64,000 nucleotides of DNA, taken from the NCBI GenBank assembly GCA_005768725.1, contig VAFM01000002.1:546048-610047 (forward strand), written 5' to 3'. The position numbers were made by a program, and so were the translations under genes. Every line of letters begins with the position of its first letter. The first letter of the stretch is position 1. The DNA comes from Blastochloris viridis. Its GTDB lineage: Bacteria; Pseudomonadota; Alphaproteobacteria; UBA2136; UBA6156. Shown piece by piece: positions 48,325 through 63,425 of this stretch. The notes beneath the pieces are model-generated. The model was given only the letters and a program-made list of their open reading frames with translations. It did no database searches and was not told the origin of the DNA.

Positions 48325-48696
48325 ATGAATCAACGCACTCTTCTCTTCAGTGTAGCTGCCGTGGCCCTCATGGCGGTCATGATCGCTAACCCGGCTCTGG
48401 CGCAGGGTACGGGCGACGTCGGCGAAGCCGGTAACGCAGCAGCGCAAACCCTTGTCAGCGCCATTACCGGTAACATCGGTCTATTGATCGGCCTCGGTAT
48501 CACCGTGATGGGCCTGTGGACCTGGATTATCGGCCAGAAGACCGCAGCTGGTCTCACCATGGTTGTAGGTGGCGTGCTGCTGACCATGGCCCCGGGTATC
48601 TTCAAGGGTGCTCGCGACGTGGCCGTGGGTGTGGTCGAAGGTTTTGGTGGCGAAGCCTACCAGGTCGACGGCGCCCAGTCCTCGGGAGCTAACTAA
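48325..48696 (+). CDS. TrbC/VirB2/TraA-family conjugative pilin-like protein (paralog 1)
   Basis: Sec signal MNQRTLLFSVAAVALMAVMIANPALAQG, then two hydrophobic helices separated by a short charged loop (…ITGNIGLLIGLGITVMGLWTWIIGQKTAAGLTMVVGGVLLTMAPGIF…), ~95-aa mature size. Confidence 0.5.
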   Translation: MNQRTLLFSVAAVALMAVMIANPALAQGTGDVGEAGNAAAQTLVSAITGNIGLLIGLGITVMGLWTWIIGQKTAAGLTMVVGGVLLTMAPGIFKGARDVAVGVVEGFGGEAYQVDGAQSSGAN

Positions 48697-48715
48697 TCCA
48701 AGCGTAGTAGCATCC

Positions 48716-49036
48716 GTGACAAAACTCTTGCTACTGGTGGTGGCGGCACTCCTTCTGGGTGCCGCCACTGGCTATGCGCAGAGCGATGCCGGCGCGGTCG
48801 AGCTTGATCTCGTGCGGCGTATCTTCACGGGGAATATCGGCCTTTTCATCGGGCTGGCTATCACGATCATGGGCATCATCATGTTCGTGCAGGGCGATAC
48901 CGGTGGCGCGATCTTTACCGTCATTCTGGGCGTGCTTATCACCATGCTGCCGGGTGTCTATAATGGCCTCCGTTACATTGCCTGCCCGATCGCGGAGGGC
49001 TTTGGCGGGCATTGTGGAACTGAAACTTCGCAGTAG
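48716..49036 (+). CDS. TrbC/VirB2-family pilin-like protein (paralog 2); probable GTG start
   Basis: VTKLLLLVVAALLLGAATGYAQS signal, then …FTGNIGLFIGLAITIMGIIMFVQGDTGGAIFTVILGVLITMLPGVY…, same architecture as the upstream gene. Confidence 0.45.
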   Translation: MTKLLLLVVAALLLGAATGYAQSDAGAVELDLVRRIFTGNIGLFIGLAITIMGIIMFVQGDTGGAIFTVILGVLITMLPGVYNGLRYIACPIAEGFGGHCGTETSQ

Positions 49037-49048
49037 GACGTAACAGTC

Positions 49049-49315
49049 ATGCAGATGCGTCCGGTACCCCGTAATATCGATAAACCGAACCGCACCCCGG
49101 AATACGCGGTCACGTTCCTGTTTGCCTATTACATGACGCTGTTCCTGTTCAGTAAAGCCTTGGTAGCGCTGCTGGTAGGCGCTATAGCAACCTACATCAT
49201 GTACAAGGTCACATTGGATAAACCGGAAGGTCTGGCCATGCGTCTCGCCTACCGTCATGTCAAATTCGGCAAAATGCGCCCGAGCCCCAAGCACGCCCCC
49301 CGTCTCGAAATCTGA
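49049..49315 (+). CDS. small inner-membrane protein, TraL/VirB3-like by size and position
   Basis: 88 aa with one or two TM helices (VTFLFAYYMTLFLFSKALVALLVGAIATYIMY); directly follows the pilin genes as traL does in F-like operons. Confidence 0.35.
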   Translation: MQMRPVPRNIDKPNRTPEYAVTFLFAYYMTLFLFSKALVALLVGAIATYIMYKVTLDKPEGLAMRLAYRHVKFGKMRPSPKHAPRLEI

Positions 49316-49452
49316 TTGAGCATCGCGGCTCAAGCGCGGCTTTGGTGCCACACGCAAAGCGCAGGCGGGAGGGTTGCTGCCTGTTTTCGCAACAGCCTAC
49401 TCCCCAACGCCTTCAAAAGCAGCTAGTCTGACGCGCAAGGAGAAGACCAAGA

Positions 49453-50115
49453 ATGGATTTTGTCGCGCGTGCAGGTGCAATTGTCGACCGTGCCCACCGG
49501 GTGGCCGGTATTCTGTTGTTATGCGTGCTCGTGCTCTGTCTGGTCAGCATGTGCCAGCTGGTTGAGAATCAGAATCTCCAGGCGGAAATGAACGCCCAGC
49601 GTATCCGTTATCCGGTGATCGTGGTGCCGGACGCTACCACTGGGGTATACAGCCCGACCGAAGAAGATCGCCTGATCTACCTGTTTGCCGACTTCGTCAC
49701 CCAGTCGCTTAACTCTTACACGCCAGCCAATATTGGCCAGCTCTATCGTGGCCTGTACCCCTACATGGGGCCAGCCCTGCAAACCGACTCGCAGCCTTAC
49801 TTTGAGCGTAAGATCCGTGACTCGACCTCCGATCGCCGCTCGTCCTTCTTTGTGCCGGACCGCACGCAACTGCCGACCGTGAAGAAGCGCCGCGAAAACG
49901 GTGTGGAATTCCGTGATGTCGCCGTACGCGGCCAGATCAGCACCATCGTCGGCGGTACACTGGCCGAAGGCTCTCCGATGGAGATCCAGATGACTTTCCA
50001 GAAAGTCTTCGCCAGCCCGGTCAACCCCTACGGCTTCCTGCTGACCAAGTACTACGAGAAACTGCTGGTCGACCCGCTGCAAGCCCCCAAACTGCCGCCC
50101 GCCGCGGCCCGGTAA
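49453..50115 (+). CDS. bitopic membrane protein, TraE/VirB8-like by architecture
   Basis: RBS aaggag; N-terminal TM GILLLCVLVLCLVSM followed by a ~180-aa periplasmic domain; operon position after the TraL-like gene. Confidence 0.35.
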   Translation: MDFVARAGAIVDRAHRVAGILLLCVLVLCLVSMCQLVENQNLQAEMNAQRIRYPVIVVPDATTGVYSPTEEDRLIYLFADFVTQSLNSYTPANIGQLYRGLYPYMGPALQTDSQPYFERKIRDSTSDRRSSFFVPDRTQLPTVKKRRENGVEFRDVAVRGQISTIVGGTLAEGSPMEIQMTFQKVFASPVNPYGFLLTKYYEKLLVDPLQAPKLPPAAAR

Positions 50116-50136
50116 TTCTGTAAAGGAGATAACTCT

Positions 50137-50856
50137 ATGCGTATGCGCCTCACTCTTCTCACTTTGGCTTTGGTGGCACAGGTCGCCGGTGTCTGGGCCG
50201 ATACTCTGGTCTGGCGCAGCCCCACCAAGCCGCTGACCATCGGTCTCTCCACCGGCGACTATACGCAGGTGATGTTCCCGGAGCCGATCAAGGCCGTGAC
50301 GCTGGAAAACCCGAGCTATATCGATGGTAAACCGCTCGACGGCTATAACGGTCAGGCCATCATGTTCCAGTCCCTGCTGCCGAAGATGGCAACCCGCGGC
50401 TTCTTTGTCGGCCAGAGCGGTAATACGTATATTCTCATTCTGACCACCGACGTGCCGTACCGCACGTATATCGAAATTGTCGACGGCGTGGCGATGAAGC
50501 AGCTCAAGGAAACGGTCGCCTCCAAAATGGGGCCGCACGATCTCATCCGCGCCATGGCGCAGGATGTCGATGTGCCCGGCATCACTCGCGAAACCTACGT
50601 GGTTCCCAACTGGTTCCGTGGCAGCGGCATGACCTTCGACCTCTCCGAGATCTGGCAGTCGCCGACCATGACCGGTTTGGTCGTACACGTGCGGAATGAA
50701 AACCCGGTGCCGAACGAGGTCAACCTGCCCGCCATCGTCATCCCCAAAACTAGCGAATGGGGTAATCTGCGCTTTGCCAGCATGGAAAATCTGCGCCTTG
50801 CACCCGCTGGCCAGCCGAACGACAAGGGCGTGCTGCTGCTCGTCTTCCTGCGCTAG
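50137..50856 (+). CDS. periplasmic protein, TraK/VirB9-like by architecture and position
   Basis: RBS aaggag; signal peptide MRMRLTLLTLALVAQVAGVWA; 239 aa, secreted and soluble. Confidence 0.3.
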   Translation: MRMRLTLLTLALVAQVAGVWADTLVWRSPTKPLTIGLSTGDYTQVMFPEPIKAVTLENPSYIDGKPLDGYNGQAIMFQSLLPKMATRGFFVGQSGNTYILILTTDVPYRTYIEIVDGVAMKQLKETVASKMGPHDLIRAMAQDVDVPGITRETYVVPNWFRGSGMTFDLSEIWQSPTMTGLVVHVRNENPVPNEVNLPAIVIPKTSEWGNLRFASMENLRLAPAGQPNDKGVLLLVFLR

Positions 50857-50958
50857 TCGTTTTGACCGGAGTGCGGCGTGACAAAAACCCCGCGCTCCCT
50901 GCCGCTCTTGGCGGCTTTCCCCTTGGCAATCCGCCTTTTTCAGCCCTATATTCTCAGT

Positions 50959-51723
50959 ATGAACCTCTCTCGGGCCTTGTTGGCATGTATCTGTCTGTCT
51001 GCCGCCGTTATGGCGCAGCCGGTGCGTGCCGATTATGAGAACGACCCGTTCGACCCGCTGATCGCCCGTGACGCCTGGATGCTGATCGCTCAGGCCGAAC
51101 GCTCCAACGGTATTCCGGCAGGCCTGCTGCACGCCATGAGCCTGGTCGAAACTGGCAAGGGGATCCGTGGCTGGGTCTTGCCGTGGCCGTACACCATCGG
51201 CGTCAATGGCACCGGAGTACAAAAGTTTGCCACGCGTGAAGAGGCGATGACGGCGTTCACCCGTTACCGCAACCTGGGCTTCGTCCGTTTTAATGTCAGC
51301 GCGCTCGGTGTACGCCTCAGCAAGGCCAAACCCTTGGAAGTGGCCGCCGCACTGGGCAGTGTTCCGGCAGGTTCTCCGGTTACGCTGGAAGGCATCAATT
51401 ACGGCCGTCGCTTCAATAGCGAGCGTGAAGCCGCCGCATTTCTCCGCCGCATGTTCAGCGCAGGCTACCGCAATGTCGATGTCGGCATGATGCAGATCAA
51501 CTGGCGCGTCCACAGCCAGCACTTCAGCAGTATCGAAGAAGCCCTGAACCCCGACACCAACCTCAATTATGCCGTGCGCTACCTGTTGGAGCACCGTCAG
51601 ACCCGCGACTGGTGGGGTTCGGTCGGCCGTTACCACAGTGGCACCAGCCGCTATGCCAACAAATACATCCGCAGCGTGTACAACATGTACCTGCGCATTC
51701 ACCGGGTGAATACCTCCGCATGA
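50959..51723 (+). CDS. lytic transglycosylase (SLT domain; PilT of R64 / BfpH / VirB1-like)
   Basis: Signal peptide MNLSRALLACICLSAAVMAQPVRA; SLT motif GLLHAMSLVETGKG (catalytic Glu); ...DVGMMQINWRVH..YAVRYL. Confidence 0.85.
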   Translation: MNLSRALLACICLSAAVMAQPVRADYENDPFDPLIARDAWMLIAQAERSNGIPAGLLHAMSLVETGKGIRGWVLPWPYTIGVNGTGVQKFATREEAMTAFTRYRNLGFVRFNVSALGVRLSKAKPLEVAAALGSVPAGSPVTLEGINYGRRFNSEREAAAFLRRMFSAGYRNVDVGMMQINWRVHSQHFSSIEEALNPDTNLNYAVRYLLEHRQTRDWWGSVGRYHSGTSRYANKYIRSVYNMYLRIHRVNTSA

Positions 51724-53558
51724 GCAAACCGATGTCCTCCGGGCGTAGCTGGACGCCTTCGCAACAGCAGGTGCTGGCCTTCAATGGCAGCAGCCTGACC
51801 GTTGGTACGCCCGGCAGTGGCAAAACCTCGCTGCTGCTGGCGCAGGCCGAGCATCTGGCCAATCATGGCCACAAGGTGGCCGTCGCCACCTTCTCCTTCC
51901 GCAGCCATCAGTATCTCAAGGCCATCGCCACGCCGTCGCAGGCGGCTATCTGGAACCGCCTCGGTACCGGTACGCTGCGCGATCTGGCCATCCAGCAACT
52001 GCATATTGCGGGCCAGAGCTTCAGCTTCGCCAGCAACAATCAGGTGCGCGAGATCCTGCGCGGCCTGATCCCGGCCCAGGCCTTCCCCGGTACGCTGGAA
52101 GATGCCGAGCACATCATCCGTACCGCCAAGGCCCGTGCCAAAAAGCTGCCCGAAAGTGATCGTTATTACCCATTCGTCGAAGCCTATAAAGCGCGTCTGG
52201 AAGAACTTGGCCTGGCCGACCGCCATGACATCATCCGCCGCCACGTTATCGGCATGCGCGATGGCTCGGTGCCGCCGCTGCCCGTCACCCATCTGTTGCT
52301 GGATAACGTGCAGGATGCCACCGAACTCCAGCTTATCTGGCTGCAGATGCATCTGGCGCAGGGTATCACGCTCAAACTGACTGGCGACGATGACGTTACC
52401 GCCTTCGGTCAGGATGGCGCGCAAGGCCCTAAAGCGCTGGAAACGATTGAAAGCTGGGGCGAGATGACCCGCTTTAACCTGACCGAGACCCAGCGCATCG
52501 CACCGGTACTCGTACCGGCGGTCGACAAGATCGCGCGCCAGCTCCGCACCCGCGTTGCCAAAACGCTGGAGGCCGCCCCTGCGACGAAGGACTCTCTCCG
52601 TCAGAATGCCACCCTGCGCGTCGAGGTTTTTCCCAACGCGCCCGCCGAGCACGTCTTTCTGGCCGAAACCTGTCAGGAACTGCTGCGCAAGCTTCCACAG
52701 GGCCAGCGCACACCCGGCGCCGGCCACCAGATCGGCATTCTTACCCGCACCCACTTCGAGGCCGCTTGCATCACCCACGCGCTGCGCCGCCATGGCCTGA
52801 ATCCCGCAAGCTATGCCCGTCTTATCTGGGAAGAACGCACGCCCCAGATCATCCTCTCGCTGCTGTACCTGATGCTCGGGCAGGGCAACAACGGCCACCT
52901 GCATATGGTGCTGCTCGGCTTTGGTGTACCCGCCACCACCGTCGCGGCACTCTTCCAGGCGGGCCTGCGCGCCGAACAATGGGCGGCCCACGGGTTTACT
53001 GTTCCTGCCTTGCCAGACGAATCCCCGACAACCCTGGCTACGCTCCAGCAAGTCCGTCGTGCCATGCGTACGTCCCAACAACTTCTGCAGGCGCCACCGG
53101 CCGCCACCGGCATGGCCGATGCCGCACTCACGCCGCGTATGGTCTTCAAAGCACTGGTGTCTGAACTTCTGCCCCACCTGCCGGCCGACGAACACGCCTA
53201 CGCGCTACTGGCCACGGATATGCTGCTGAATCTGTCCGGCAAGCTCACCGAAGTATTGCCGCGCGTGCGGACGGAAACCCTGCCGGATATGGCTTCACCC
53301 ATCGTGGTGGCGCCGGTGCGCGAAACCCGCAACCAGCAGTTCGGTACCGTCATTCTGCCCTATGCCTCGGCGAACCACTGGCCCAAGCCGCCCTCCAAAC
53401 TGATGGGCACGGATGCCGACCACGAGCGCCGCCTGTTCTATCTGGCCATTACCCGGAGCGCCGGTTCGCTCATCTTTACCCGCCACCAGCCGGAAGCATC
53501 GCCGCTGGTGCAGGAGCTTCAGCAGAGCCTGAAGCAGCAGGCCCGCAAGGCTGCATAA
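51720..53558 (+). CDS. UvrD/Rep-family superfamily-1 helicase-like protein with degenerate motif II
   Basis: Motif I TVGTPGSGKTS; motif II LLDNVQDAT (canonical DEFQD, so the catalytic Glu is replaced by Asn); motif III LTGDDDVTAFGQDGA; motif VI YLAITRSAGSLIF. Start ATG overlaps the SLT stop (ATGA). Confidence 0.75.
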   Translation: MSKPMSSGRSWTPSQQQVLAFNGSSLTVGTPGSGKTSLLLAQAEHLANHGHKVAVATFSFRSHQYLKAIATPSQAAIWNRLGTGTLRDLAIQQLHIAGQSFSFASNNQVREILRGLIPAQAFPGTLEDAEHIIRTAKARAKKLPESDRYYPFVEAYKARLEELGLADRHDIIRRHVIGMRDGSVPPLPVTHLLLDNVQDATELQLIWLQMHLAQGITLKLTGDDDVTAFGQDGAQGPKALETIESWGEMTRFNLTETQRIAPVLVPAVDKIARQLRTRVAKTLEAAPATKDSLRQNATLRVEVFPNAPAEHVFLAETCQELLRKLPQGQRTPGAGHQIGILTRTHFEAACITHALRRHGLNPASYARLIWEERTPQIILSLLYLMLGQGNNGHLHMVLLGFGVPATTVAALFQAGLRAEQWAAHGFTVPALPDESPTTLATLQQVRRAMRTSQQLLQAPPAATGMADAALTPRMVFKALVSELLPHLPADEHAYALLATDMLLNLSGKLTEVLPRVRTETLPDMASPIVVAPVRETRNQQFGTVILPYASANHWPKPPSKLMGTDADHERRLFYLAITRSAGSLIFTRHQPEASPLVQELQQSLKQQARKAA

Positions 53559-53584
53559 AAGAACCGGCCTCCAGGCCGGTTCAG
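53559..53584. terminator. bidirectional terminator hairpin between convergent genes
   Basis: agaaccggcctccaggccggttc perfect hairpin. Confidence 0.6.
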
Positions 53585-53595
53585 AGTTTTGAGCG

Positions 53596-54147
53596 TTATT
53601 GGCACACGCTGCGACCACAGGTCGTCGTGTAAATGGGGTTACAGGTCTCACAACCGTCATGATATCCCGAAGAGCGGTACCCGGTTAAAACCGTACCAAA
53701 GCTGCTGTAACCTGCGGGGCACTGGCCAGAGGTTGTCGTGGTCGTCTCCAGACGGCAGTTGGCCGAAACCTGGCTGCTGGAGGTCGAACGGCAGCTGTCG
53801 CTGGCGCGAGAGTAGACCTGGTTGTTGTTGCCGCACGCGATGAACTTCTGCAGGATCGAATCATCATAGGCCGCCCCCTTACATCCAAGCGCATCGGCAC
53901 CCTGTTCGTTTTTACCGATATAGAGAAGACCGCGCTTACCGCATTCAATCGCTTCGGTCACACGCACATTCAGTCCTGCTATCCGCCCTTCTGCAGCCGT
54001 GGCGAGATTGGAGAGTGCCTGCCAGGAGGTTTGGTCTGTCTGCGCACCCGCTGCCGTGCGCTCCTGCGCAAGGGGAGCGGCGGAGGTCATGCTCAGGGCA
54101 CACAAGGAGAGGCACAGGGCGAGAAGGCGGGAAGAGGCGAAGATCAT
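53596..54147 (-). CDS. secreted cysteine-rich protein, paralog A (~184 aa, 10 Cys)
   Basis: Signal peptide MIFASSRLLALCLSLCALSMTSAAP; conserved FIACG, QCPAGY, HDGCETCNPIYTTTC; ends ...GRSVCQ. Confidence 0.65.
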   Translation of the reverse strand: MIFASSRLLALCLSLCALSMTSAAPLAQERTAAGAQTDQTSWQALSNLATAAEGRIAGLNVRVTEAIECGKRGLLYIGKNEQGADALGCKGAAYDDSILQKFIACGNNNQVYSRASDSCRSTSSSQVSANCRLETTTTTSGQCPAGYSSFGTVLTGYRSSGYHDGCETCNPIYTTTCGRSVCQ

Positions 54148-54170
54148 GGTAAGGCTCTTGATGTTGGTTG

Positions 54171-54737
54171 TTATTTGTACTCGCACACCATCGTGGCACA
54201 GGTCGTCGTGTAAATGGGGTTGCACGTTTCGCAACCGTCATGCCAACCGGAGGATTTGTAGCCCGCGAAAACGGTACCCATATTGTTATATCCGGCCGGG
54301 CAACGGTTGCCGTACGACATATTGCTGGTGATTGTGGTCGTTCGCATGGAGCATACCTGAACCTTTTCGATGGTGGAGAGGCAACGGTCCTGATTCATCG
54401 CATAGATCAGGCCTTGGTCACCGCAGGCGATGAACTTGTTCAGAATGGCGCTGGAGTAGGGCGCAGCAAGGCAGCCTTCCGCGTCGGCCCCGTTAATGCC
54501 TGGCGCATACATACGTCCCTTGGCGGCGCATTTGGACGACTGGTTCAGCCGGATGGACACGGTTTGTGCCGCCATCTGGGTTTTGTTGAGGGAATTGGCG
54601 ATACCGGACCATTTTGTTTCCGTCTCAAGAGACTCGGTCACGGCGCGTTCCTGGGCTGCGGCGGCAGGGAGGTAAACGCCACAGGCAAGGCCAGCAAGGC
54701 TTGCGACGCAGAAAAGGGTTTTCGTGAAGAGACTCAT
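54171..54737 (-). CDS. secreted cysteine-rich protein, paralog B (~189 aa, 10 Cys)
   Basis: Signal peptide MSLFTKTLFCVASLAGLACGVYLPAAAA; same conserved Cys spacing (FIACG, RCPAGY, HDGCETCNPIYTTTC); 23-nt gap to paralog A. Confidence 0.65.
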   Translation of the reverse strand: MSLFTKTLFCVASLAGLACGVYLPAAAAQERAVTESLETETKWSGIANSLNKTQMAAQTVSIRLNQSSKCAAKGRMYAPGINGADAEGCLAAPYSSAILNKFIACGDQGLIYAMNQDRCLSTIEKVQVCSMRTTTITSNMSYGNRCPAGYNNMGTVFAGYKSSGWHDGCETCNPIYTTTCATMVCEYK

Positions 54738-54850
54738 GTGTACCTTTATAGGGATGAGGGGTGGGGTGTCTGACATAGCGTCCGGAACGACGAGATATCA
54801 GGCTGCAAAACGATTACATCTCAAAGAAGACAAACCCGACACCAAATTCG

Positions 54851-54900
54851 CACACCCCCTGTCAGTTTTGAGAAGGGGGGTGCATCAAAAAACTGACACT
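54851..54900. promoter_or_regulatory. nested palindrome in the divergent promoter between the Cys-rich operon and the sigma-ParB fusion gene
   Basis: Outer perfect 10-bp inverted repeat TGTCAGTTTT(54860-54869)/AAAACTGACA(54889-54898); inner CCCCC/GGGGGG hairpin arms (54855-54859/54875-54880). Confidence 0.5.
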
Positions 54901-54955: not shown

Positions 54956-57241
54956 ATGAGTAAAGCCACCAAAGCCACGGTCCGTAAACCTGCAGCTCCC
55001 GCCAAAACTGTTAAGGCCGCACCTGCCATCAAAGCGGTGGCCGAACCCAAGGCCAAAGCGCCCACCAAAGGCCAGCAGCGTCAGGTCGCCCGTAACGAGG
55101 CCGATGTCGCGGCCCTCAAGGCTGCCGACGAAGGTTTCAAGCTTGCCCGCGAGAATGCGGTGAAGTACCTGCACAGCCGCCGTCAGGCCATTTTCGCATT
55201 GGCCCGCCATTTCCACCTGGATGCCGACGACCTGCAGCAGGAAGCCTACGAAGTGCTGTTGACCTGCCTGCGCGATTTCAACCCGCTCTACACCAAGGCC
55301 GATGGCACCACCGTCAACGTCCAGTTCAACACCTTTTTCGGCAACCGTTTGGAAGGCAAGGCGCTGGAGCAGCGCAACCGTGACCCGGAATACCAGGCCC
55401 GTCAGGCCCACCTGCAGGACATGAGCGACGAGGAACGCACCGAATTCCGTAAAAACCCGCCCTTGCTGGTACAGCACCTCGACCAGGAAACCACCATGCA
55501 GGAAACCCTGCGCGGCGAGGTGGCCGCCGCCCAGCGCTCCCGCCAGACCAATATGGCACTGAAAGTAGTGCAGGATACCTTCATCGAACGCAAACTGAAC
55601 GACCTGATTGCCGCCGAACGCGACGACAAGCGCCGTGCCGCCCTGATGCACGTCAAGGTGGGTGGCGTCAGCAGCTTTGAAGAGATCGCCTACCACTTCG
55701 GGGTCACCGACAGTCGCGCCAGCCAGATCCTGAACGAACTGATGGATGCGTTCTACGTGCAGCGCCTGATTGATGGCGACCTGAAGAGCGTGATGTACGA
55801 CTTCCGCAAGCTCAGTCTGCAACCTAAACGCACCCAGCGCCTGCTGGAAGAGGCCATGCGCAATGCCCCTACACCCCGCGCCGCCGAGATTGCCAACCTG
55901 TTCATGGCCGAATACCCGGACCTGCGCGAGGTATTGGGCAGCCTGCCGAAACCCGGCCAGATTGCCGAAAAGACCGAAACCGACAGCGCCGAAGCGCCAG
56001 CGACTGCCAGCGGCAACGCGTTGCCGGCACAGCTGACGCCCGCCGAAGAGGACCAGTACCCGTTGCAGGCCGTGGAATGGCGCGAAATCGCAACCCTGAC
56101 CGCGCTGGGCGTCCAATTCCGCCCGACCTTGATGCAGGCACCGGAAGATATGGCGCATATCCGCCAGATTGCCGCCCATCCCGCCGAAACCTGGGCACCG
56201 CTGATCGTGACGCCGGAAGGCGGCGTGATTGATGGGGAGCGCCGCATTGCGGCCGCCCGCGCCAAGGGTATCACCCGTTTGCTCTGTCAGGTACGTACCA
56301 CGCCTAGTGCTGCGCTGGCCCGCCAGTTGCGTGTCTGCCTCAACAGCCGTGTCCGTCCGCTGGATAAACTGGAACTGTATTTCGCCATCGGTGCATTGTC
56401 CGAGCTGGGCCTGACCCAGGGCGTTATCGCCCAAGCGCTTGGTACCAGTCGCCCCAACGTTATCGTTTACGCCAAGGTGCGCGAAAAAGCTTCGCCGCGC
56501 CTGCGCCAGTTGTTCGAAGACGGACTGATTCAGATCACCAATGCTTCCAGCGCGGTCGATCTTCCGGTCCAGTCGCAGGATGAAATGGCCGACTTCATTC
56601 GCCAATACGGTGCCGGGTGGGGCCGTGGCCCGCAGTTTAACGAGCTGTACGCCGCTGCCGCCGAAGGTCAGATTGCCGCCCTTGTGCCGCCGCAGGTAGG
56701 TGGGCCGCAACCCAGCCATGCTGCCATTCTGCCACTCCCCAGCATTCCCGCCGCCACACTGGCATCCGCTCCGGTGCAGGGTGCCCAACTGGTAGCGCCT
56801 CCCGGTTCACTCTCTCCCACACTGGCAACCGCGCTTAAAAAGCGACAGGAGGCACTGGAAACCGCACTGCGCGACAGCGAGATCTGGGCCCGTCAGCGTG
56901 AGGCGACCATTACCAGCCAAACCAGCCAGATTCATGATCTGCGTCAACAGGTTGAGAGTTATAAACGCGAACTTGAAGCGCAAACTCTGCTGCAACATGG
57001 CGATGCGGCGACCATGGCCAATTATATGAAGGAACTCAAAGCCTTCTATGCGGTGCAGGAGCGTTTGGCCAGTGCCATCCACCAACTGGAAAAGACCCAC
57101 ACCGCGGTGCGCAGCCTGAACCTAACCCACCGTCAAACGGTTGAATTGGAACAGTTGTTGGAGAAAGTTGCCTCTCTGCAAACGGCTCTGCGCGTGCAAC
57201 TGGTAAAATCCCCCACCCCCACACCCGAAAATACGCGCTAA
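54956..57241 (+). CDS. fusion protein: Lys/Ala-rich histone-like tail + sigma-70-family (regions 2 and 4) domain + ParB-like N-domain with HTH + C-terminal coiled coil
   Basis: Residues 1-40 KATKATVRKPAAPAKTVKAAPAIKAVAEPKAKAPTKG. Sigma region 2 DLQQEAYEVLLTCLRDFNP...FNTFFGNRLEGKALEQ. Region-4 HTH VSSFEEIAYHFGVTDSRASQILNELMD. ParB motif LIVTPEGGVIDGERRIAAARAKGITRL with HTH LTQGVIAQALGTSRPNV. Heptad-rich C-terminus. Confidence 0.65.
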   Translation: MSKATKATVRKPAAPAKTVKAAPAIKAVAEPKAKAPTKGQQRQVARNEADVAALKAADEGFKLARENAVKYLHSRRQAIFALARHFHLDADDLQQEAYEVLLTCLRDFNPLYTKADGTTVNVQFNTFFGNRLEGKALEQRNRDPEYQARQAHLQDMSDEERTEFRKNPPLLVQHLDQETTMQETLRGEVAAAQRSRQTNMALKVVQDTFIERKLNDLIAAERDDKRRAALMHVKVGGVSSFEEIAYHFGVTDSRASQILNELMDAFYVQRLIDGDLKSVMYDFRKLSLQPKRTQRLLEEAMRNAPTPRAAEIANLFMAEYPDLREVLGSLPKPGQIAEKTETDSAEAPATASGNALPAQLTPAEEDQYPLQAVEWREIATLTALGVQFRPTLMQAPEDMAHIRQIAAHPAETWAPLIVTPEGGVIDGERRIAAARAKGITRLLCQVRTTPSAALARQLRVCLNSRVRPLDKLELYFAIGALSELGLTQGVIAQALGTSRPNVIVYAKVREKASPRLRQLFEDGLIQITNASSAVDLPVQSQDEMADFIRQYGAGWGRGPQFNELYAAAAEGQIAALVPPQVGGPQPSHAAILPLPSIPAATLASAPVQGAQLVAPPGSLSPTLATALKKRQEALETALRDSEIWARQREATITSQTSQIHDLRQQVESYKRELEAQTLLQHGDAATMANYMKELKAFYAVQERLASAIHQLEKTHTAVRSLNLTHRQTVELEQLLEKVASLQTALRVQLVKSPTPTPENTR

Positions 57242-57251
57242 CCCTTGCATA

Positions 57252-59177
57252 ATGCGTACACCTGCACCATTTTGGAACTATATGGAATGGAAACGTATTT
57301 CCGGGCGATCGGGTAAGGCCGTTGGAGCGGCTGTTTTGGCATTGCAAATCTGTGTTGGCAGCGTTTATGCGCAATTCGATGGAACCGGCGGCATTCCCGC
57401 GGCTGACCTGTATCTATCACCTCTGCCGGAAACAGGTCTTCGTGTTCCGCCGAGTGGAGCTATCAATATTACCCCAGCTTTAAATCCCGAAGAAGCGATG
57501 GGTGATCGAACTCCTGTTATGACCGGTGAAGCCGCAAAGGTAGGAGACGTGACGAATACGCTTGGTTGCGCTGGTATCGGTCAGGGTGAGTTTACCAGCG
57601 GTTTGTACAATATGCCGGAGACCTATCTGAAATTCCAGCAGGATGTGAACTCGACCCTCTCGAAGAACTTGCTCTCCCTCAACTTCGTCATGCCGCAAAC
57701 CTCGGCGCTGTTTGAGCAGTTGAACAATATCGGTAACCAGCGTTATGACCAGTTCCAGCGCGCCTGTAACGTCACTCAGCTTCAGCAGGATGCCAAACAG
57801 ACCTACATGCAGGCCTGTGTGGAAAAGCTGACGCCTGAGCGCAAAAAGCTGATCGAAGAAGACAATAACAAACGTCCTCAAAATGCGCGGATTCCCGAGG
57901 CACAGATCGGCCCGATGGCCTATGCCCAGGCGTGGGAAGTCTGTGGCAACCAGTACACGAGTAATACAACGGCATTGGACGTACGCAATACCAAGCTTAC
58001 GGATTTCTATACAAAAACACGTGAACTGGAACGTGTGAACGATGCTGTTGCACCGCTGCTGTGCCAACTGACCAACTCTCAGAAGGCGTCCGATGATATT
58101 GCTGGCTGCTGGAGTCAATTCCTGATTCCGCAAGTCCGCATCTGTCTTGGGAATGATCTGGAAGGCGGCTGCACCGATGGTAACTATGGCGTTAAAGAGC
58201 CGATTATCACGATGCAGCGTCTATTCGATACCATGCGCTTTGTTATGGAAGATGAAGTGATCGCACGTCGCGTTATCAGTTTTACCACCCAGTTGGATCA
58301 AAAAAATATAGGACCCTCTGCACGTCGCCTTGCAGCGGCAGAGGCCTCGCTGGCAATGAGCACAGCTACATTGTTCCGCGGTGTGAGTGGCACGACATCG
58401 ACGGGTTCAGATATTCCCTCCATGCCTCTTAATACAGTGCAGGATTATCAGCTTGGCTACCTCAGTTGTAAACAGAATGATATTCTTATTCCTTTGAAGG
58501 AATATCAGAACCGCATTAAAGAAAAAGCCGGATCGGGTGTCGAAATTAAGGATATAGAAGAGCTTTTAGAACCCGCCTACGAACAGGTGGTAAAGAGGAT
58601 GAAGCTGCCCAGTATGTCGGGTAAGAACAGTGGTGCAGCGGGCGCAGAATCGGGTGGTGGTGATGTTAATGATGAAAAGGATGTGAAGGCGGTAGGTGCT
58701 CTTCTCAAAACGGCTATTGGTTGTACGGCCAACCAGTCCATTCCGATTTTTGACCCGAATATCACTGCGGCTCTTCAAACCCAATGCAGTGCGCAAGACC
58801 GCTCCGCTTTCTATACCATGGCCGGTTACGATGTCGCCTTAACTGCTACGCGCGATGTCTACCGCTACACAGGCCTCAAGCTGAAGCAGGTCTATGCCCG
58901 CCTGCTGACGGAAGCGATGGTACCGGTCTCTGATACGACGAATACATCTGTCAGCCCGACCCTTAGCCCGGAACTGAACGCCAAGTTCGCCACGGTCGTG
59001 AAGGATGTCATGATTCCGTACGTGGATGCCCAAATCCAGCGTCTGGATGAACTGAACACCACGCGCGGTGTCTTTGGTCAGCGTGTCCGGGAAATTTATA
59101 ACAATAAGAGTGGATGTATGTCGCAGCCTGCAGGGTTCGTTCTGCCAAATGGCAGACCCGCGACATTTCGTCCGTAG
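57252..59177 (+). CDS. large secreted Cys-containing protein (641 aa), possible T4SS periplasmic component (TraH/TraN-like?); lower-GC gene
   Basis: Signal peptide GAAVLALQICVGSVYAQ; ~18 Cys; AT-richer codon usage than neighbours. Alternative start at 57282 (MEWKR). Confidence 0.45.
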   Translation: MRTPAPFWNYMEWKRISGRSGKAVGAAVLALQICVGSVYAQFDGTGGIPAADLYLSPLPETGLRVPPSGAINITPALNPEEAMGDRTPVMTGEAAKVGDVTNTLGCAGIGQGEFTSGLYNMPETYLKFQQDVNSTLSKNLLSLNFVMPQTSALFEQLNNIGNQRYDQFQRACNVTQLQQDAKQTYMQACVEKLTPERKKLIEEDNNKRPQNARIPEAQIGPMAYAQAWEVCGNQYTSNTTALDVRNTKLTDFYTKTRELERVNDAVAPLLCQLTNSQKASDDIAGCWSQFLIPQVRICLGNDLEGGCTDGNYGVKEPIITMQRLFDTMRFVMEDEVIARRVISFTTQLDQKNIGPSARRLAAAEASLAMSTATLFRGVSGTTSTGSDIPSMPLNTVQDYQLGYLSCKQNDILIPLKEYQNRIKEKAGSGVEIKDIEELLEPAYEQVVKRMKLPSMSGKNSGAAGAESGGGDVNDEKDVKAVGALLKTAIGCTANQSIPIFDPNITAALQTQCSAQDRSAFYTMAGYDVALTATRDVYRYTGLKLKQVYARLLTEAMVPVSDTTNTSVSPTLSPELNAKFATVVKDVMIPYVDAQIQRLDELNTTRGVFGQRVREIYNNKSGCMSQPAGFVLPNGRPATFRP

Positions 59178-59294
59178 GCGCGCAAGCCGCTCGTTCTTTC
59201 ACCAACTTGTTTCCCTGCAACACCGGATAACAGCTGACACTCTGTAAAAACGCGGGCATTATCGGCCCAAGGTGTAACAGGGGAACAATAAGTC

Positions 59295-61496
59295 GTGTCC
59301 GATATGCAGCATGTGATGGCGGGGGAGGGGCCGCAGATACTTCCGGTTCTCGCCGGCTGCTGGGATCTACGCCTAGGCTATCACCCGTCCCTGAAACAGC
59401 AATTGCCGATGCTGGCCGACCTTCCGGTGTTGGAATCGGTTGAGGCGCAGCAGTTGGCAGAGCTGGAGCTTCCCGTCGCGCTTGCAACCACCGGTCACCA
59501 CCTGATGAAGGATGCGGCTCTGCTTGCCGCTGCCATGCCGCAGGGGGGTATGGTCGAAGCGGCGGATGTCTATCCGTTGGCGCCGGTCTTTGTGCGCGAC
59601 CTCTGCGGTCGTCCCATCCATACCGGTCTTGTTCCGCTGCCTGCCGCACCGTCGGTACCCCTCTTTCCTACAGGTTGCCGTCATGTCCCGAAGGATCATC
59701 CGGCCTATGCGCATCTCGAAAGCCTGATCTGGCAGACGCTGCGCCGTATCGAATGCGCGCCGGTGCGTCCCGATGCCGCAGGGCTTGCAGGGCAGCCTGA
59801 ACTGAGTTTGCGGGCCGCCATTGCCCAACCGCAAGCGTATGCTTTCAAGCTTCGCCCGGACACGTTTTACGCCGATGGCTGGCGCTTGCCGGTGGTGCCG
59901 CGCGTGTTTGCCGTGCCGGTGCAGCCGGTGCAGGCGCAGGCAGCGGCCGACGAACTTCTGGCGCGCTGGCAGCAGCGTCCGGAAGGGCAGGATTACGAAG
60001 CCTTTTACGACGCCAACAATGGTGAGATCTGGTTTGAAGAGCTGTTCGAGCGCGGCTGTACGGTGATCCCGACCCTGGAGGCCTACAATGGCCGCTATCA
60101 TATCGGGGCCGATTACGTGGCGACGGCGGTCGATCCGGGCCGCGCTCTGCCGGGGTTGCATGAGGTTGTCGGGCGTGAGCCGTCGGAATATGCCGCAGGT
60201 ACGATTCTTGAAGTCAAAGCCCCGGGCTGGGTGACGGCGACCACGGTGCACAAGGCGCAGGTGGTTGTGAGTGATGGCAGTGCATTCGTTGCAGCCGATG
60301 CCCCGCTGCCGCAGTTGCCAGACTTGGCGCTGCCGCACGCGCGGGTGGGGGGCAAGGTGGGCGATGTCTGGCTGCCGACACATCCCGAACACTTTGCCGA
60401 ACCGGCCTTGTACGACTGGAACGAGATGGGGCATTTTGTCCAGATCTCAGGCCCGCTCTGGGATCCTCTCCATTATGTTTATACCAGCACGGCACCGCTT
60501 CTGCGGGCGCTGCGCAAACCGCACCCGGTGGTGGCAGGCGCCTATGTGCTGCCGGAATCCGTCAAGCTGCGCTTCCATCCGCTGGCGCAACTGACGTGGT
60601 ACGACGCCTACAACGAGCGGACCGCCCAGCAGCGCATGCAGGATCCGGCCCACCCCTTGTACGGCAGTGCCATCGACATGGTGCCGCTGATGCGCGAAGT
60701 GGCGCCCGCCGGGTATCACCGTCTGCCGTGGGGGTTGGAATATGAATTGGACCCAGCCCATCTGCCAGCGCTGCATCCGCGTCATCGTGCGGTGGTCTAT
60801 CCAGAAGTTTTGGCTGGTCGTCGCATGGGTATTGCCACATTAAGCGATGCCGACAGCTACCGTACGCACGACACGGTGGTAACCGAAGCGATGCGGGATG
60901 TATTGGCGCATGCGTGTACGGCTCCGTTTGAGGAAGCTGTTTGCGACATCCATGCCACACTGCTTCCTGCCGAATTGCTGGCGCAGCCGGAACCGCACAT
61001 GCGGGCCGTGCCGGTCTGGTTGCCTGAAATTTCAGCCAGCCATCTCGCGGTAAATATCAAGAGAATTTTCGCAGCACGGCGCTATCGGCAGGCGGTACAA
61101 GAGCAGTCGGTCCGCTGGGGACAGTCTGGTTTTCCGGCGGCCTTCTACCAATTCCGAGAGTCAGCGCTGGCTTGGCGCCGCTTGCGTTACCGCCTGTTTG
61201 GCAAGTATGCCTCGGTCTGGCAGCAGGCTGCGGCAGAAGGTTTGGATCTTACCGCGGCTGAACTTCTGGTGCCGGAGTCCGATCCGGTGCGTCATGCGCA
61301 GGTGCAGCACGCGCGTGCCAGCGGGCTGGGAGTGGTTGCAGAGGTGCCTCTCCAGAGGGCGGATGGTTTGCCTTCCTCTGCGGCACAGGGTAAGCTCACG
61401 CAAGCTGAGCGGCCTAAGCCCCCACGGGCGCTGGACAAGGCCTCGCACAAGGTGCGGCAGGGTCGCGCGCAAACCGATAACAACGGCATGGAATAA
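59295..61496 (+). CDS. large cytoplasmic hypothetical protein (733 aa); GTG start
   Basis: Long ORF with consistent codon usage; no recognisable motif; Trp/His-rich. Confidence 0.45.
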   Translation: MSDMQHVMAGEGPQILPVLAGCWDLRLGYHPSLKQQLPMLADLPVLESVEAQQLAELELPVALATTGHHLMKDAALLAAAMPQGGMVEAADVYPLAPVFVRDLCGRPIHTGLVPLPAAPSVPLFPTGCRHVPKDHPAYAHLESLIWQTLRRIECAPVRPDAAGLAGQPELSLRAAIAQPQAYAFKLRPDTFYADGWRLPVVPRVFAVPVQPVQAQAAADELLARWQQRPEGQDYEAFYDANNGEIWFEELFERGCTVIPTLEAYNGRYHIGADYVATAVDPGRALPGLHEVVGREPSEYAAGTILEVKAPGWVTATTVHKAQVVVSDGSAFVAADAPLPQLPDLALPHARVGGKVGDVWLPTHPEHFAEPALYDWNEMGHFVQISGPLWDPLHYVYTSTAPLLRALRKPHPVVAGAYVLPESVKLRFHPLAQLTWYDAYNERTAQQRMQDPAHPLYGSAIDMVPLMREVAPAGYHRLPWGLEYELDPAHLPALHPRHRAVVYPEVLAGRRMGIATLSDADSYRTHDTVVTEAMRDVLAHACTAPFEEAVCDIHATLLPAELLAQPEPHMRAVPVWLPEISASHLAVNIKRIFAARRYRQAVQEQSVRWGQSGFPAAFYQFRESALAWRRLRYRLFGKYASVWQQAAAEGLDLTAAELLVPESDPVRHAQVQHARASGLGVVAEVPLQRADGLPSSAAQGKLTQAERPKPPRALDKASHKVRQGRAQTDNNGME

Positions 61497-61502
61497 CCGA
61501 AG

Positions 61503-62954
61503 ATGGCGTCCGAAAACTCACCCGATTACATCGCCCGTCCGGGCGCCGGTGGCAAGCCGGAAGGTGGCACGTCGCAAGCCTCTGACGCACTGCAGCGTTT
61601 CCGCGCATTGCCGCCCAAGCTGCAGGGTGCCATTCTCATCGGTGCGCTGATTCTGGTGTTCTACGTCATTTCCACCCTGCGCGGCGGCGGTGCGTCTACG
61701 CAGCGCAGCGTTGTCAATCTGGGGCAGACCAATAACCGCACCGGCCAGGTCAGTGCGACTTTCACAGGTATCGAAACCGACCGTCCGGCCGTGATGCAGG
61801 CGGTGTTCGAGCAGAACCGTCGTGATATGGCCGAACTGCGTTCCAAGATCGAAAGCGATTTCAGCATCCGCGACAAAGCCCTGCAGGATGCTATCACCCA
61901 AAACCAGGAACTGCAGCGCCAAATGCAGCAGATGATGGGCGACTTTACCACCGAGCTGAAGAGCATTCAGGTGGAGCGCGCCCGCGATAACGAGCGTCTG
62001 GCTCAACTGGCCGACCAGCAACGCCAGTTGGAACTGAATGCGCCGGTCAACGGCGTTGGTCAGGTCGGCGGCATTACGCCGCAGCGCCGTGCCATCCAGC
62101 AGGTTGTGCTGGGCGGCGGTGGCGGTGGTGTGATGGGAGCTGTCCGCGCCCCTTTCGCGCAGGCGGGGACGGGCTCTAACAAGTCGGACTCAGCGGGTCA
62201 GGCTGTCCGTAACCCCGCTGAAAAGGCGGCGGAAGAGCGCTTACCATTCATTCCGCCGCTGGGCTTTGTCCGTGCAACCATGCTGAACGGTGTTGATGCG
62301 CTGGTCGGTGGAACCACGACACCAGCTCTGGCCCGCCTGTCGGGAACCTACAAAACCGCCATGAACAGCACGATCTCGCTGGATGGCTGTATCGCCATGG
62401 TCGAATTTACCGGTAATATTTCCACCGAGCGCGCCACGGGTAAGCCGGTCCGCATGACGTGTGTCTACCCAGACGGCGGCGCCGCGACCTACAGTCTCTC
62501 TGGGTACGCGGTCGATGCCGAGGACGGTATTATTGGAATTCCCGGCGTTCTATATGAAGGCGACCCGAGCCGTATCGCGGCCGCCATGCTGGCCGAGTTT
62601 GCCGCCGGTGTCGCCGGTATCGTGGAAGACAACACCGGCAACAGCGTCACCCGCGTGAATACCGATGGTACAACGTCTACGTTCGAACTGCCGAGCAGTG
62701 CTGACTGGGCCGAGCAGATTGTCGGCGGGTCCGGCAAGGTGATGGGTTCGCTGCGTGATTATCTCCAGAAACGTGCCGACCGCGTTCAGTCGTTCATCCG
62801 TCTGGATGCCACGCGCGAAATCAATCTGGTGATCCTGAACGGTACCGAACTGCGCAAGTCCGGCGAAGTCTGGAGCGCGCTGTTCGACGGCAATACCGAC
62901 AGCGGCCTGCCGCAATCCAATTTACCCGCCGAGACATCCGGCGCAACGCAATAA
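61503..62954 (+). CDS. TraB/VirB10-family T4SS protein (TrbI-like C-terminal domain)
   Basis: Cytoplasmic N-terminus, one TM (LQGAILIGALILVFYVISTL), coiled coil, Gly-rich linker, C-terminal ...VRMTCVYPDGGAATYSLSGYAVDAEDGIIGIPGVLYEG... consistent with the VirB10/TraB beta-barrel domain. Confidence 0.55.
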   Translation: MASENSPDYIARPGAGGKPEGGTSQASDALQRFRALPPKLQGAILIGALILVFYVISTLRGGGASTQRSVVNLGQTNNRTGQVSATFTGIETDRPAVMQAVFEQNRRDMAELRSKIESDFSIRDKALQDAITQNQELQRQMQQMMGDFTTELKSIQVERARDNERLAQLADQQRQLELNAPVNGVGQVGGITPQRRAIQQVVLGGGGGGVMGAVRAPFAQAGTGSNKSDSAGQAVRNPAEKAAEERLPFIPPLGFVRATMLNGVDALVGGTTTPALARLSGTYKTAMNSTISLDGCIAMVEFTGNISTERATGKPVRMTCVYPDGGAATYSLSGYAVDAEDGIIGIPGVLYEGDPSRIAAAMLAEFAAGVAGIVEDNTGNSVTRVNTDGTTSTFELPSSADWAEQIVGGSGKVMGSLRDYLQKRADRVQSFIRLDATREINLVILNGTELRKSGEVWSALFDGNTDSGLPQSNLPAETSGATQ

Positions 62955-62969
62955 GGGGGAAGACAGATC

Positions 62970-63425
62970 ATGAAAACCTACCGTCTACCTGTAGCACTTC
63001 TGGGTGTGGTCGCCATGCTGGGCGGCTGTAAGTACTATGGCAGCGCCCTTCCGCCGGAGTACCCGATGAGCATGGAAGATGCCCTGACCTCGGCCAACGA
63101 CCAGCGCGCCAGCGCCGGCGGCAGCCAGCGTCCGGTGGTGCGTAATCCTACCCGCCCGCGCGTCGAGCGCCCAAGCTACCTGCCGGAAAAGGAACTGGCA
63201 CTTGTCAGCCCGCCCAAAACCCTGCTGGTCTGGACCTACCCGCACGTCACCGACGATAATACGCGCGTGTTCGGTAACTGGAGCACCATCTTCCTGACCG
63301 ACCGCTACGAATGGGCCCGCCCGAGCAACGAACTGCCGAGCAACGAAGACGATGCTGGCACCGCAGCCGGTCGTCCGTCGCTGGGCATGGCGCCGCAGAA
63401 CGGCGCGGCCGCCCCCACGCCCTAA
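62970..63425 (+). CDS. small lipoprotein, TraV-like by size and position after the TraB-like gene
   Basis: RBS aagggggaag; signal plus LGGC lipobox; 151 aa; Pro-rich. Confidence 0.35.
   Translation: MKTYRLPVALLGVVAMLGGCKYYGSALPPEYPMSMEDALTSANDQRASAGGSQRPVVRNPTRPRVERPSYLPEKELALVSPPKTLLVWTYPHVTDDNTRVFGNWSTIFLTDRYEWARPSNELPSNEDDAGTAAGRPSLGMAPQNGAAAPTP

Follow-up and report, generated by a model that had tools for sequence, protein, structure and literature searches.

The window analysed here is a stretch of 64,000 nucleotides from a contig labelled Blastochloris viridis (VAFM01000002.1), and its last 16 kb carry the genes of an F-like type IV secretion system (T4SS). The cluster starts with two pilin genes, followed by the genes of a TraL-like protein, a TraE-like protein and a periplasmic protein in the position of TraK. 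TraB, TraV and the start of TraC are found at the far end. Seven genes lie between the two groups. They encode a lytic transglycosylase (SLT), a UvrD-like protein, two Cys-rich proteins on the opposite strand (Cys1 and Cys2), a fusion of a sigma-factor-like domain with ParB (sigma-ParB), and two proteins of 641 and 733 residues (p641 and p733). An open reading frame (ORF) listing with translation finds every gene that an earlier note on this DNA had named, each in its place, and the layout is real. That note had read the seven genes either as cargo inserted into a T4SS operon or as parts of a non-canonical system built from T4SS components. For five of them (SLT, UvrD-like, sigma-ParB, p641 and p733) the cargo reading is refuted, and these five are very probably fixed, vertically inherited members of the system. 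The second reading is supported: the T4SS core is real but very divergent, several F-type parts are missing, and new proteins have become fixed in the cluster.

T4SSs are divided into eight mating-pair formation (MPF) classes, in which the core genes are contiguous. In each of the seven annotated plasmid systems inspected, traB lies next to traK (in L029 with one small annotated ORF between them), so the separation found here, with the TraK-position gene and TraB 10.6 kb apart, is real and unusual. The two genes are also separated in the relatives of the window.

Six genomes from GTDB (L003-L008), with TraB identities of 50-90%, have the order SLT, UvrD, sigma-ParB, p641, p733, TraB, TraV, TraC, p872 and p297 wherever the contig allows; p872 and p297 are two further proteins encoded downstream of TraC. 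The same order is found in L010, where p733 is only 34% identical. Eleven metagenome loci were found through the TraK-like protein, which has 55-63% identity in these loci and 99% in the near-identical L015. Loci L015-L023 include TARA contigs of 232-994 kb, and the gene order was examined in seven of the eleven. Those that are long enough have type IV pilus genes, two lipoproteins, two pilins, TraL, TraE, TraK, in some cases SLT, UvrD, sigma-ParB and then a p641 homologue. In the freshwater/engineered clade, p733, TraB, TraV and TraC come directly after p641. Related systems therefore carry the same intervening genes as canonical components. The metagenomes in which the loci were found are from pond, wastewater, hospital and marine samples; their contigs measure up to about 1 Mb, and contigs bearing homologues reach 1.36 Mb.

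The cluster genes have diverged together with their surroundings. Between the window and L003 or L004, synonymous divergence (dS) is about 0.6-1.5 for every cluster gene and 0.92-0.98 for the flanking glycosyltransferase GT1; the downstream flank of GT1, GT4 and an NTP-transferase is common to L001, L003 and L004. All of the cluster genes are intact in the window, L003 and L004. Their ratios of non-synonymous to synonymous divergence (dN/dS) are 0.02-0.27, with 0.05-0.17 for the intervening genes, indicating purifying selection. No direct repeats flank the 50.9-61.5 kb segment, around which only short direct or inverted matches at chance level and the paralogy of Cys1 and Cys2 were found. Neither a transposase nor an integrase was found in the window, and no plasmid matched the region in megablast. 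The low GC content of p641, noticed in the earlier note, is correct (0.52 against about 0.61 in its neighbours). However, in six of six genomes (the window, L003, L004, L007, L008 and L010) the p641 orthologue is 6-17 GC points below its neighbours, and since all orthologues share this property it is not a local anomaly.

The Cys1/Cys2 pair is different. An orthologous pair is present in L008 at 53% identity, but neither the closer L003 and L004 nor L007 and the marine loci have the pair, and in L010 its slot holds an IS200-type Y1 transposase gene. As judged from these sequences, only this pair behaves as optional cargo, and the gap in which it sits is a single variable slot. Cys1 and Cys2 are paralogues with 41% identity, each with a hydrophobic N terminus resembling a signal peptide, and they share the C-terminal motif DGCETCNPIYTTTC. 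Profile searches of Pfam, NCBIfam, PHROG and the PDB gave no family or structure match for either. The features of the whole cluster are listed in Table 1.

Table 1. Genes and sequence features of the T4SS cluster (window coordinates)
Feature	Position	Strand	Basis and remarks
Promoter-like TTGCAA-N16-CATAAT	48273..48300	+	5' of pilin1; 9/12 consensus match
Pilin1, VirB2/TrbC family	48325..48696	+	Pfam TrbC 3.6e-10, above gathering score; AAAGGAGA ribosome-binding site 7 nt 5' of ATG
Pilin2, pilin1 paralogue	48716..49036	+	Start uncertain, best candidate GTG at 48716
TraL/VirB3-like, 88 aa	49049..49315	+	Weak family matches and hhalign
TraE/VirB8-like bitopic membrane protein, 220 aa	49453..50115	+	TIGR02761 and hhalign; one transmembrane segment
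TraK-position periplasmic protein, 239 aa	50137..50856	+	Position and pOS401 homologue; TraK homology unproven
Promoter-like TTGGCA-N18-TATATT	50923-50952		Directly 5' of SLT start; 10/12 match
SLT, lytic transglycosylase (VirB1-like)	50959..51723	+	Pfam SLT 6.6e-7, above gathering score
UvrD-like superfamily 1 (SF1) protein	51720..53558	+	Pfam UvrD-helicase 9.7e-7, above gathering score
GC-rich hairpin terminator	53561..53582		Predicted; between the convergent UvrD and Cys1 genes
Cys1, predicted secreted, 12 Cys	53596..54147	-	Accessory gene
Cys2, predicted secreted, 12 Cys	54171..54776	-	Accessory gene
Inverted repeat TGTCAG-N27-CTGACA	54860..54898		5' of sigma-ParB
Sigma-ParB fusion, 761 aa	54956..57241	+	First gene of proposed unit 2
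p641	57252..59177	+	Cys-rich, signal-peptide-like N terminus
CTGACA-N17-CATTAT	59234-59262		5' of p733; resembles repeat-arm site of sigma-ParB
p733	59295..61496	+	Alternative ATG start 59304
TraB/VirB10	61503..62954	+	Pfam TrbI and NCBIfam TraB
TraV-like lipoprotein, lipobox LGGC	62970..63425	+	hhalign and alignment
TraC/VirB4 start	63487..64000	+	Extends past window end; full gene L001 11985-14582

The T4SS core genes differ in how readily they can be recognised. The assignment of TraB from its sequence is secure (Pfam TrbI 1.2e-9, above the gathering score, and NCBIfam NF010289 TraB 1.4e-16). Pilin2 is 42% identical to pilin1 (E 2e-18) and also matches the protein in the pilin position of plasmid pOS401 (phmmer 1.8e-4). 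Direct matches are weak for the TraL-like protein (Pfam TraL 1e-3, TIGR02762 1.8e-3) and for the TraE-like protein (TIGR02761 6e-4, over its full length), which has one predicted transmembrane segment at residues 19-37. Because of this weakness a profile-profile comparison was built with hhalign, in which profiles of the orthologues were aligned with profiles from six annotated canonical plasmid systems and all cross-pairs served as controls. The matches to canonical TraL (94.9%, E 4.6e-8), TraE (82.6%, E 9.7e-6) and TraV (93.9%, E 1.6e-7) stand well apart from the off-diagonal control pairs, all of which have E values of at least 0.15. For the TraV-like protein, a profile search of the PDB gave no significant match. 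By sequence, then, homologues of TraL, TraE, TraB and TraV, which are characteristic of MPF_F systems, are present. The protein in the TraK position has a hydrophobic N terminus resembling a signal peptide and no Pfam, NCBIfam or PDB match. Canonical TraK is the best of its row in the same comparison, but at 4.4% and E 0.009 this is not significant, and the homology to TraK is therefore unproven. The protein is homologous to the pOS401 protein encoded between TraE and TraB (phmmer 2.4e-16). Among the T4SS assignments of the earlier note, those of the pilins, TraL, TraE, TraB and TraV hold, while that of TraK is not confirmed by sequence.

TraC belongs to an isolated clade. Its best family is TIGR02746, the F-type TraC (2.7e-59), with a score of 201 bits that is far under the 567-bit cut-off, and it also matches Pfam P-loop_TraG and TraC_F_IV. 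Its clade consists of 85 cluster representatives with 55-94% identity, all from uncultured metagenome-assembled genomes (MAGs) or metagenomes, and the next matches have at most 25% identity. Several members of this clade carry implausible NCBI labels (Blastochloris viridis, Pseudomonas fluorescens, Pseudomonadaceae). TraW, TraU, TrbC, TraN, TraH and TraG were not found by Pfam and NCBIfam scans of all sizeable ORFs between 25 kb and the cluster end. The same scans gave just a weak match to a TraF-like thioredoxin, and p641, p733, p872 and p297 had no family match. A polytopic membrane protein of 1043-1146 residues, a candidate analogue of VirB6/TraG, is found only in L023 and L009; tblastn of the 1043- and 1146-residue proteins against the window gave no homologue. 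In L023 (17464-20595) the gene comes after the p641 homologue. In L009 (1310-6783) it is directly 5' of a p733 homologue, with no visible T4SS context.

The SLT protein matches VirB1 (NF010438, 3.4e-4) as well as the Pfam family in Table 1, which agrees with its earlier identification as a lytic transglycosylase. It is an ordinary T4SS accessory protein of the VirB1 type in an unusual place. Its stop codon overlaps the start of the UvrD-like gene as ATGA at 51720-51723, as expected from the translational coupling that had been proposed for the two genes.

The UvrD-like protein also matches a PHROG DNA helicase family (8e-16) and is under purifying selection (dN/dS 0.07-0.17). Its Walker A motif (GSGKT), motif III (GDDD) and motif VI are intact, but motif II is DNVQD in the window, and each of the ten chromosomal orthologues compared (the window, L003, L004, L007, L008, L010, L017, L020, L021 and L023) has D[NGH]xQD. 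The pOS401 homologue (L014 39212-41161), in contrast, retains DEMQD. In SF1 helicases, loss of the motif II Glu abolishes ATP hydrolysis. By its sequence the protein lacks the DExx motif with the catalytic Glu that marks SF1A, and it is probably a hydrolysis-dead ‘pseudo-helicase’. Since the catalytic Glu is lost, it would more likely act as a nucleotide-bound DNA-binding or scaffolding factor than as a motor.

The sigma-ParB protein is 44-92% identical across all loci. Its ParB part is confirmed: residues 375-510 match Spo0J/ParB structures in the PDB (6sdk/1vz0, 1.1e-6), and the PHROG ParB family is matched at 1.9e-10. Within this part DGERRIAAARAKG is conserved (the GERR box), followed by a helix-turn-helix (HTH) and a C-terminal coiled coil, and by sequence the protein has the ParB N-domain with GERR box and the HTH of the ParB/Spo0J family. 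The sigma part of the proposed fusion is weaker. The N-terminal region, of the size of an extracytoplasmic function (ECF) sigma factor, matches positions 13-158 of the 165-position profile TIGR02937 at 2.1e-6, with 27.5 bits against a cut-off of 42.9. Pfam Sigma70_r4 reaches just 0.019, and the motifs resembling regions 2 and 4 were read by eye.

The p641 protein always follows sigma-ParB, with homologues at this place in L010, L021 and L023. It has 13 Cys residues, ten of which are invariant in a five-sequence alignment (A1). It is the fastest-evolving protein of the cluster, with 31-75% identity where TraC has 68-94%, and its dS is saturated. Low GC content together with fast evolution is a pattern typical of surface-exposed or frequently recombining genes. 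The AlphaFold2 (AF2) model is all-alpha and of moderate quality (pLDDT 64.5); a Foldseek search of the PDB with it gave noise, and no PDB sequence, fold or PHROGs match was found. The protein may be a disulfide-bonded periplasmic or surface component that diversifies rapidly; it might serve as an adhesin, sit at the pilus tip or be analogous to TraH or TraN. In a marine subclade, a third VirB2-like pilin gene (202 aa) follows the p641 homologue (L021 15002-19304; L020 7057-9377).

The p733 protein has many invariant His, Tyr and Asp residues. No match was found for it in Pfam, NCBIfam, PHROG or PDB sequences, or among plasmids by tblastn. Since it has no predicted signal peptide or transmembrane segment, it is probably cytoplasmic. 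A profile scan of 1.84 billion representative proteins returned about 31 full-length family representatives and weak matches (5e-6 to 1e-3) spanning about 50 residues; all ten of those tested are GrpE proteins, matched at their C-terminal domain. In pairwise alignment, residues 286-329 have 40% identity to the C-terminal (beta) domain of GrpE (E 2e-6, about 45-50 residues). The AF2 model of p733 is confident (pLDDT 90.9, pTM 0.89). Foldseek against the PDB found only local GrpE matches (about 120 columns, query TM-score 0.1), the rest of the fold being unmatched, and gave no nuclease or relaxase fold. The GrpE-like segment thus has independent support from the profile scan and from Foldseek. 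The similarity is one of a GrpE-like domain and not of membership in the GrpE family, whose architecture of about 200 residues with an N-terminal helix and a four-helix bundle is not seen in p733. The protein may be a cytoplasmic factor that uses its GrpE-like domain to couple a DnaK-type ATPase or a substrate to the machine.

The cluster would be transcribed as two units, according to the promoter-like and terminator-like sequences. Unit 1 would run from the pilins through TraL, TraE, the TraK-like protein and SLT to the UvrD-like gene, ending at the hairpin terminator, whose 9-bp stem has seven GC pairs and precedes a run of T on the minus strand. Unit 2 would start from the inverted repeat, as a putative operator with a promoter-like site, and include sigma-ParB, p641, p733, TraB, TraV, TraC, p872 and p297. 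The variable slot of Cys1 and Cys2 is the gap between these two proposed units. The inverted repeat TGTCAG-N16..29-CTGACA is present within 260 nt 5' of the sigma-ParB start in eight of eleven loci (the window, L003, L004, L007, L008, the distant L010, L019 and L020), and the pair upstream of sigma-ParB is the only one of its kind in the window. Its right arm forms the promoter-like CTGACA-N17-CATTCT, and the repeat is a candidate operator or autoregulatory site. As a regulon-wide promoter, AAACTGACAC was rejected: it occurs only at this inverted repeat, with no enrichment elsewhere. The site TTGGCA-N18-TATATT suggests an internal promoter within unit 1. The promoter proposed upstream of pilin1 is present, but it is a 9/12 match and on its own is weak evidence, because a consensus scan finds ten sites of such quality in the region against 5.6 +/- 2.3 in shuffled sequences. 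Good ribosome-binding sites, which had been described for the first T4SS genes, precede pilin1, TraE, TraK, TraV and p733 but not the remaining genes.

The T4SS cluster occupies the middle of a chromosomal supercluster about 45 kb long. The genes at 957-23426 include ddl, a Mur ligase gene, gidA/mnmG, gidB, parA, parB, a porin gene, leuS, holA, hemN, rdgB and rph. Since these first 23 kb hold origin-proximal housekeeping genes, the supercluster of T4SS and type IV pilus genes is close to the presumed replication origin region. Between 25217 and 48237 are genes for a TraF-like thioredoxin, a type IV coupling protein (T4CP), a type IVb-like pilus module (a TcpQ-like protein, secretin, PilB, PilC and several prepilin-like proteins) and two coiled-coil lipoproteins. 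In the marine loci L017, L021 and L023, genes for the pilus, the lipoproteins and the T4SS likewise lie side by side. One C-terminal domain of about 100 residues is common to both lipoproteins (44582-46696, 704 aa; 46696-48237, 513 aa) and also matches the TcpQ-like region of a 443-residue protein (32661-33992), and all three match the same stretch of L019. The T4CP (26871-28283, 470 aa) scores above the cut-offs of Pfam TraG-D_C (38.4 bits, cut-off 22) and TrwB_AAD_bind (24.8 bits, cut-off 20.5), matches SXT_TraD at 4.5e-28, and has a Walker A motif and a DE Walker B motif but no predicted transmembrane segment. A predicted coupling protein, one feature of conjugative elements, is thus present.

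Downstream of TraC, in the 9 kb past the window end (L001 14729-18335), p872 and then p297 are followed by lipopolysaccharide-type genes. The p872 protein has a disordered Pro/Ala-rich N-terminal region of 540 residues, one transmembrane segment and a C-terminal domain, and no family match. The p297 protein has no predicted transmembrane segment or signal peptide and no family match; its identity is 99% in L003, 95% in L004 and 68% in L010. No relaxase family was matched in the 64-kb window and the 9 kb downstream, where a MobH query with phmmer also found nothing; the same 64 kb and 9 kb gave no integrase family, tRNA or att repeats. The small ORFs at 23.5-32.6 kb include no integrase or relaxase, and one of them encodes an AhpC-type peroxiredoxin. 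The locus does not have the integrase, the tRNA/att boundary or the variable site of an integrative and conjugative element (ICE): its flank is the same in three genomes, and it lies beside gidAB-parAB. An affiliation of the clade with the predatory Micavibrionales was considered but is not claimed here; the paper on Micavibrio ARL-13 reports no T4SS (PMC3189940).

Among the closest known systems is the MPF_F class (F plasmid, SXT/R391). The VirB2-like pilin, TraL, TraE, TraB, TraV and a VirB4 that comes nearest to the TraC type, though under its family cut-off, are shared in roughly the F order, as are a nearby TraF-like thioredoxin, a TraD-like T4CP and an SLT transglycosylase. In MPF_F, however, traK-traB(-traP)-traV is contiguous, whereas here TraK is not recognisable, 10.6 kb of conserved genes intervene, the missing F-type proteins named above and the relaxase are not detectable, there are two pilins, TraC has no more than 25% identity to any TraC outside its clade, and the locus is chromosomal and vertically inherited.

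Plasmid pOS401 (Comamonadaceae bacterium OS-4, AP026971.1) is the only one of 72,556 plasmids in PLSDB with a match to the TraK-like protein. Its cluster, annotated as ‘hypothetical proteins’, has type IV pilus genes, VirB1, a pilin, TraL, TraE, the TraK-like protein, TraB, TraV, TraC, a TraF-like protein, a T4CP of 469 residues and a UvrD-like helicase. Apart from the TraK match given above, phmmer E values are 4e-29 for TraB, 7e-56 for TraC, 2e-46 for T4CP and 1e-24 for UvrD, at identities of 25-40%. In pOS401, unlike the window, nothing separates TraK from TraB, SLT comes first and T4CP-UvrD last, and homologues of sigma-ParB, p641, p733, p872 and p297 are absent. Because pOS401 retains the ancestral order, with TraK next to TraB, the chromosomal lineage appears to be a rearranged and probably domesticated derivative.

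MPF_G (ICEHin1056/ICEclc) and MPF_I (R64) systems resemble the window in having two VirB2-like pilins, and the R64 and PAPI-1 systems are associated with a type IVb pilus module. MPF_G also has TraK-, TraB- and TraV-like core proteins (PMC4027160). The window differs in having no matches to the TIGR037xx (PFL_47xx) ICE families apart from a weak one to traC_PFL_4706 (3e-22); in MPF_G the core genes are adjacent, and systems of both classes encode an integrase as well as a relaxase of the MOB_H or MOB_P type. In IncP-1 plasmids, KorB is a ParB-fold DNA-binding protein that is encoded with a T4SS and regulates it. Similarly, a ParB-domain protein would head unit 2 here behind a conserved inverted repeat, to which it is predicted to bind. 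Unlike KorB, it is fused to a sigma-70-like N-domain and a long C-terminal coiled coil, and it has no ParA/IncC partner in the cluster. The genetic island of Neisseria gonorrhoeae retains all F-type genes, encodes a TraI relaxase and has traK beside traB. It was acquired horizontally, in contrast to the clade-wide, vertically inherited locus described here, but both are chromosomal F-like T4SSs with a lytic transglycosylase and a ParB-type protein. The island encodes lytic transglycosylases and ParA/ParB-type proteins and functions in the secretion of single-stranded DNA rather than in classical conjugation of plasmids (PMC4207684).

Taken together, the architecture is, with high probability, that of a conserved, non-canonical F-like T4SS, fixed in the chromosome and arranged in two units. 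By its sequences the system is a very divergent F-like T4SS of an uncultured alphaproteobacterial clade, in which it is inherited vertically, and it is probably domesticated. The pilins, TraL, TraE, the TraK-like protein, TraV, TraB and TraC would build an envelope channel and a pilus, for which SLT would open the peptidoglycan. Sigma-ParB would be the system's own autoregulated transcription and DNA-binding factor, with a job comparable to that of KorB on the IncP transfer genes. Two of the intervening proteins, p641 and p733, would be structural or accessory parts specific to this lineage.

The best of the alternatives, which we nevertheless regard as rather unlikely, is an active conjugative system, either an ICE or a T4SS that mobilises the chromosome in the manner of an Hfr (high frequency of recombination) strain. 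The intervening genes would then be a DNA-processing module, in which the UvrD-like protein unwinds DNA, sigma-ParB binds a site like oriT or parS, and p733 is a new relaxase or relaxosome protein feeding single-stranded DNA to the T4CP. The T4CP itself, the linkage of a UvrD-like gene to T4CP in pOS401 as well, the GERR motif retained by the ParB domain, the invariant His, Tyr and Asp residues of p733 and the precedent of DNA-exporting F-like chromosomal islands with ParA/ParB such as the gonococcal one (PMC4207684) all agree with this explanation. However, relaxase, integrase, tRNA and att repeats were all absent from the 64 kb and 9 kb searched, no chromosomal orthologue of the helicase retains the catalytic Glu, p733 gave no match to a nuclease or relaxase fold, and even pOS401 is typed as non-mobilizable by MOB-suite. 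The chromosomal site is fixed, with flanks that co-diverge, and the conservation of TraC would be unusual in a mobile element. Domestication to a non-conjugative function has in its favour the fixed locus, the strongly conserved TraC, the absence of a relaxase and an integrase from the stretch searched, and the dead helicase motif.

A decaying remnant, in which unrelated chromosomal genes have accumulated between the fragments of a degraded conjugation locus, is very improbable. It would account for the undetectable TraW, TraU, TraN, TraH, TraG, VirB6-like protein and relaxase, for the degenerate motif II of the helicase and for the frameshift of TraB in L010, a contig of only 2x coverage. Against this, the genes are intact and constrained in the window, L003 and L004, TraC is 59-94% identical over its 85 cluster representatives, the order is conserved across deep divergence, and the regulatory inverted repeat is conserved as well. 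Hardly any likelihood is left for the recent insertion of a mobile module (SLT, helicase, regulator and orphans) into a canonical traK-traB junction, as the adjacency of these genes in all plasmid systems inspected, the low GC of p641 and the two genes on the opposite strand might suggest: this reading is refuted because the order is conserved down to 50% TraB identity, the genes are under purifying selection with dS like that of the flanks, no flanking repeats, transposase or integrase were found, and low GC is common to the p641 orthologues. The data leave room for no more than an old rearrangement at the root of the clade.

Several observations weigh against a conserved and complete system. 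Marine relatives are rearranged downstream of p641: the p733 homologues of L020 and L021 are encoded on the other strand, with no TraB gene within 10 kb of TraK. SLT is not at this position in the marine loci L018-L021, and only TraK, UvrD, sigma-ParB and p641 are universal across the related loci. The TraK assignment has its position and the homologue in the TraK slot of pOS401 in its favour, the sequence itself not establishing the homology. The window lineage yielded no polytopic protein of the VirB6/TraG kind, so the machine may lack parts or work with parts of an unknown sort. The relaxase search spanned about 73 kb of one contig. The unit boundaries are drawn from one hairpin and from promoter matches at the level of a consensus, and the roles of p641, p733 and the UvrD-like protein are ones that we infer. 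The taxonomy of the clade follows MAG labels, some of which are clearly wrong (‘Blastochloris viridis’, ‘Pseudomonas fluorescens’).

A bolder proposal, less likely to be right than wrong, is that the clade has an undescribed T4SS lineage at the level of a class, domesticated, joined physically and functionally to the type IVb-like pilus and put to a non-conjugative use throughout the clade. That use might be, for example, a contact-dependent cell interaction or the release or uptake of DNA. The new core parts of the system would be the sigma-ParB regulator, the dead UvrD-like protein, p733 with its GrpE domain and the hypervariable Cys-rich surface protein p641.

The loci are coherent and widespread in chromosomes, and they keep a part of the F-type core, split in two units. 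Several proteins of no known family are fixed in the cluster, and the fold of p733 is confident yet unmatched. The case also teaches that an interrupted canonical gene order calls for a comparison with relatives before the interrupting genes are taken for cargo. Should the system be functional, it would be a natural experiment on which parts of a T4SS are dispensable or replaceable, a candidate for the exaptation of a conjugation machine, and a source of new modules such as the sigma-ParB regulator, the pseudo-helicase and the GrpE-like adaptor.

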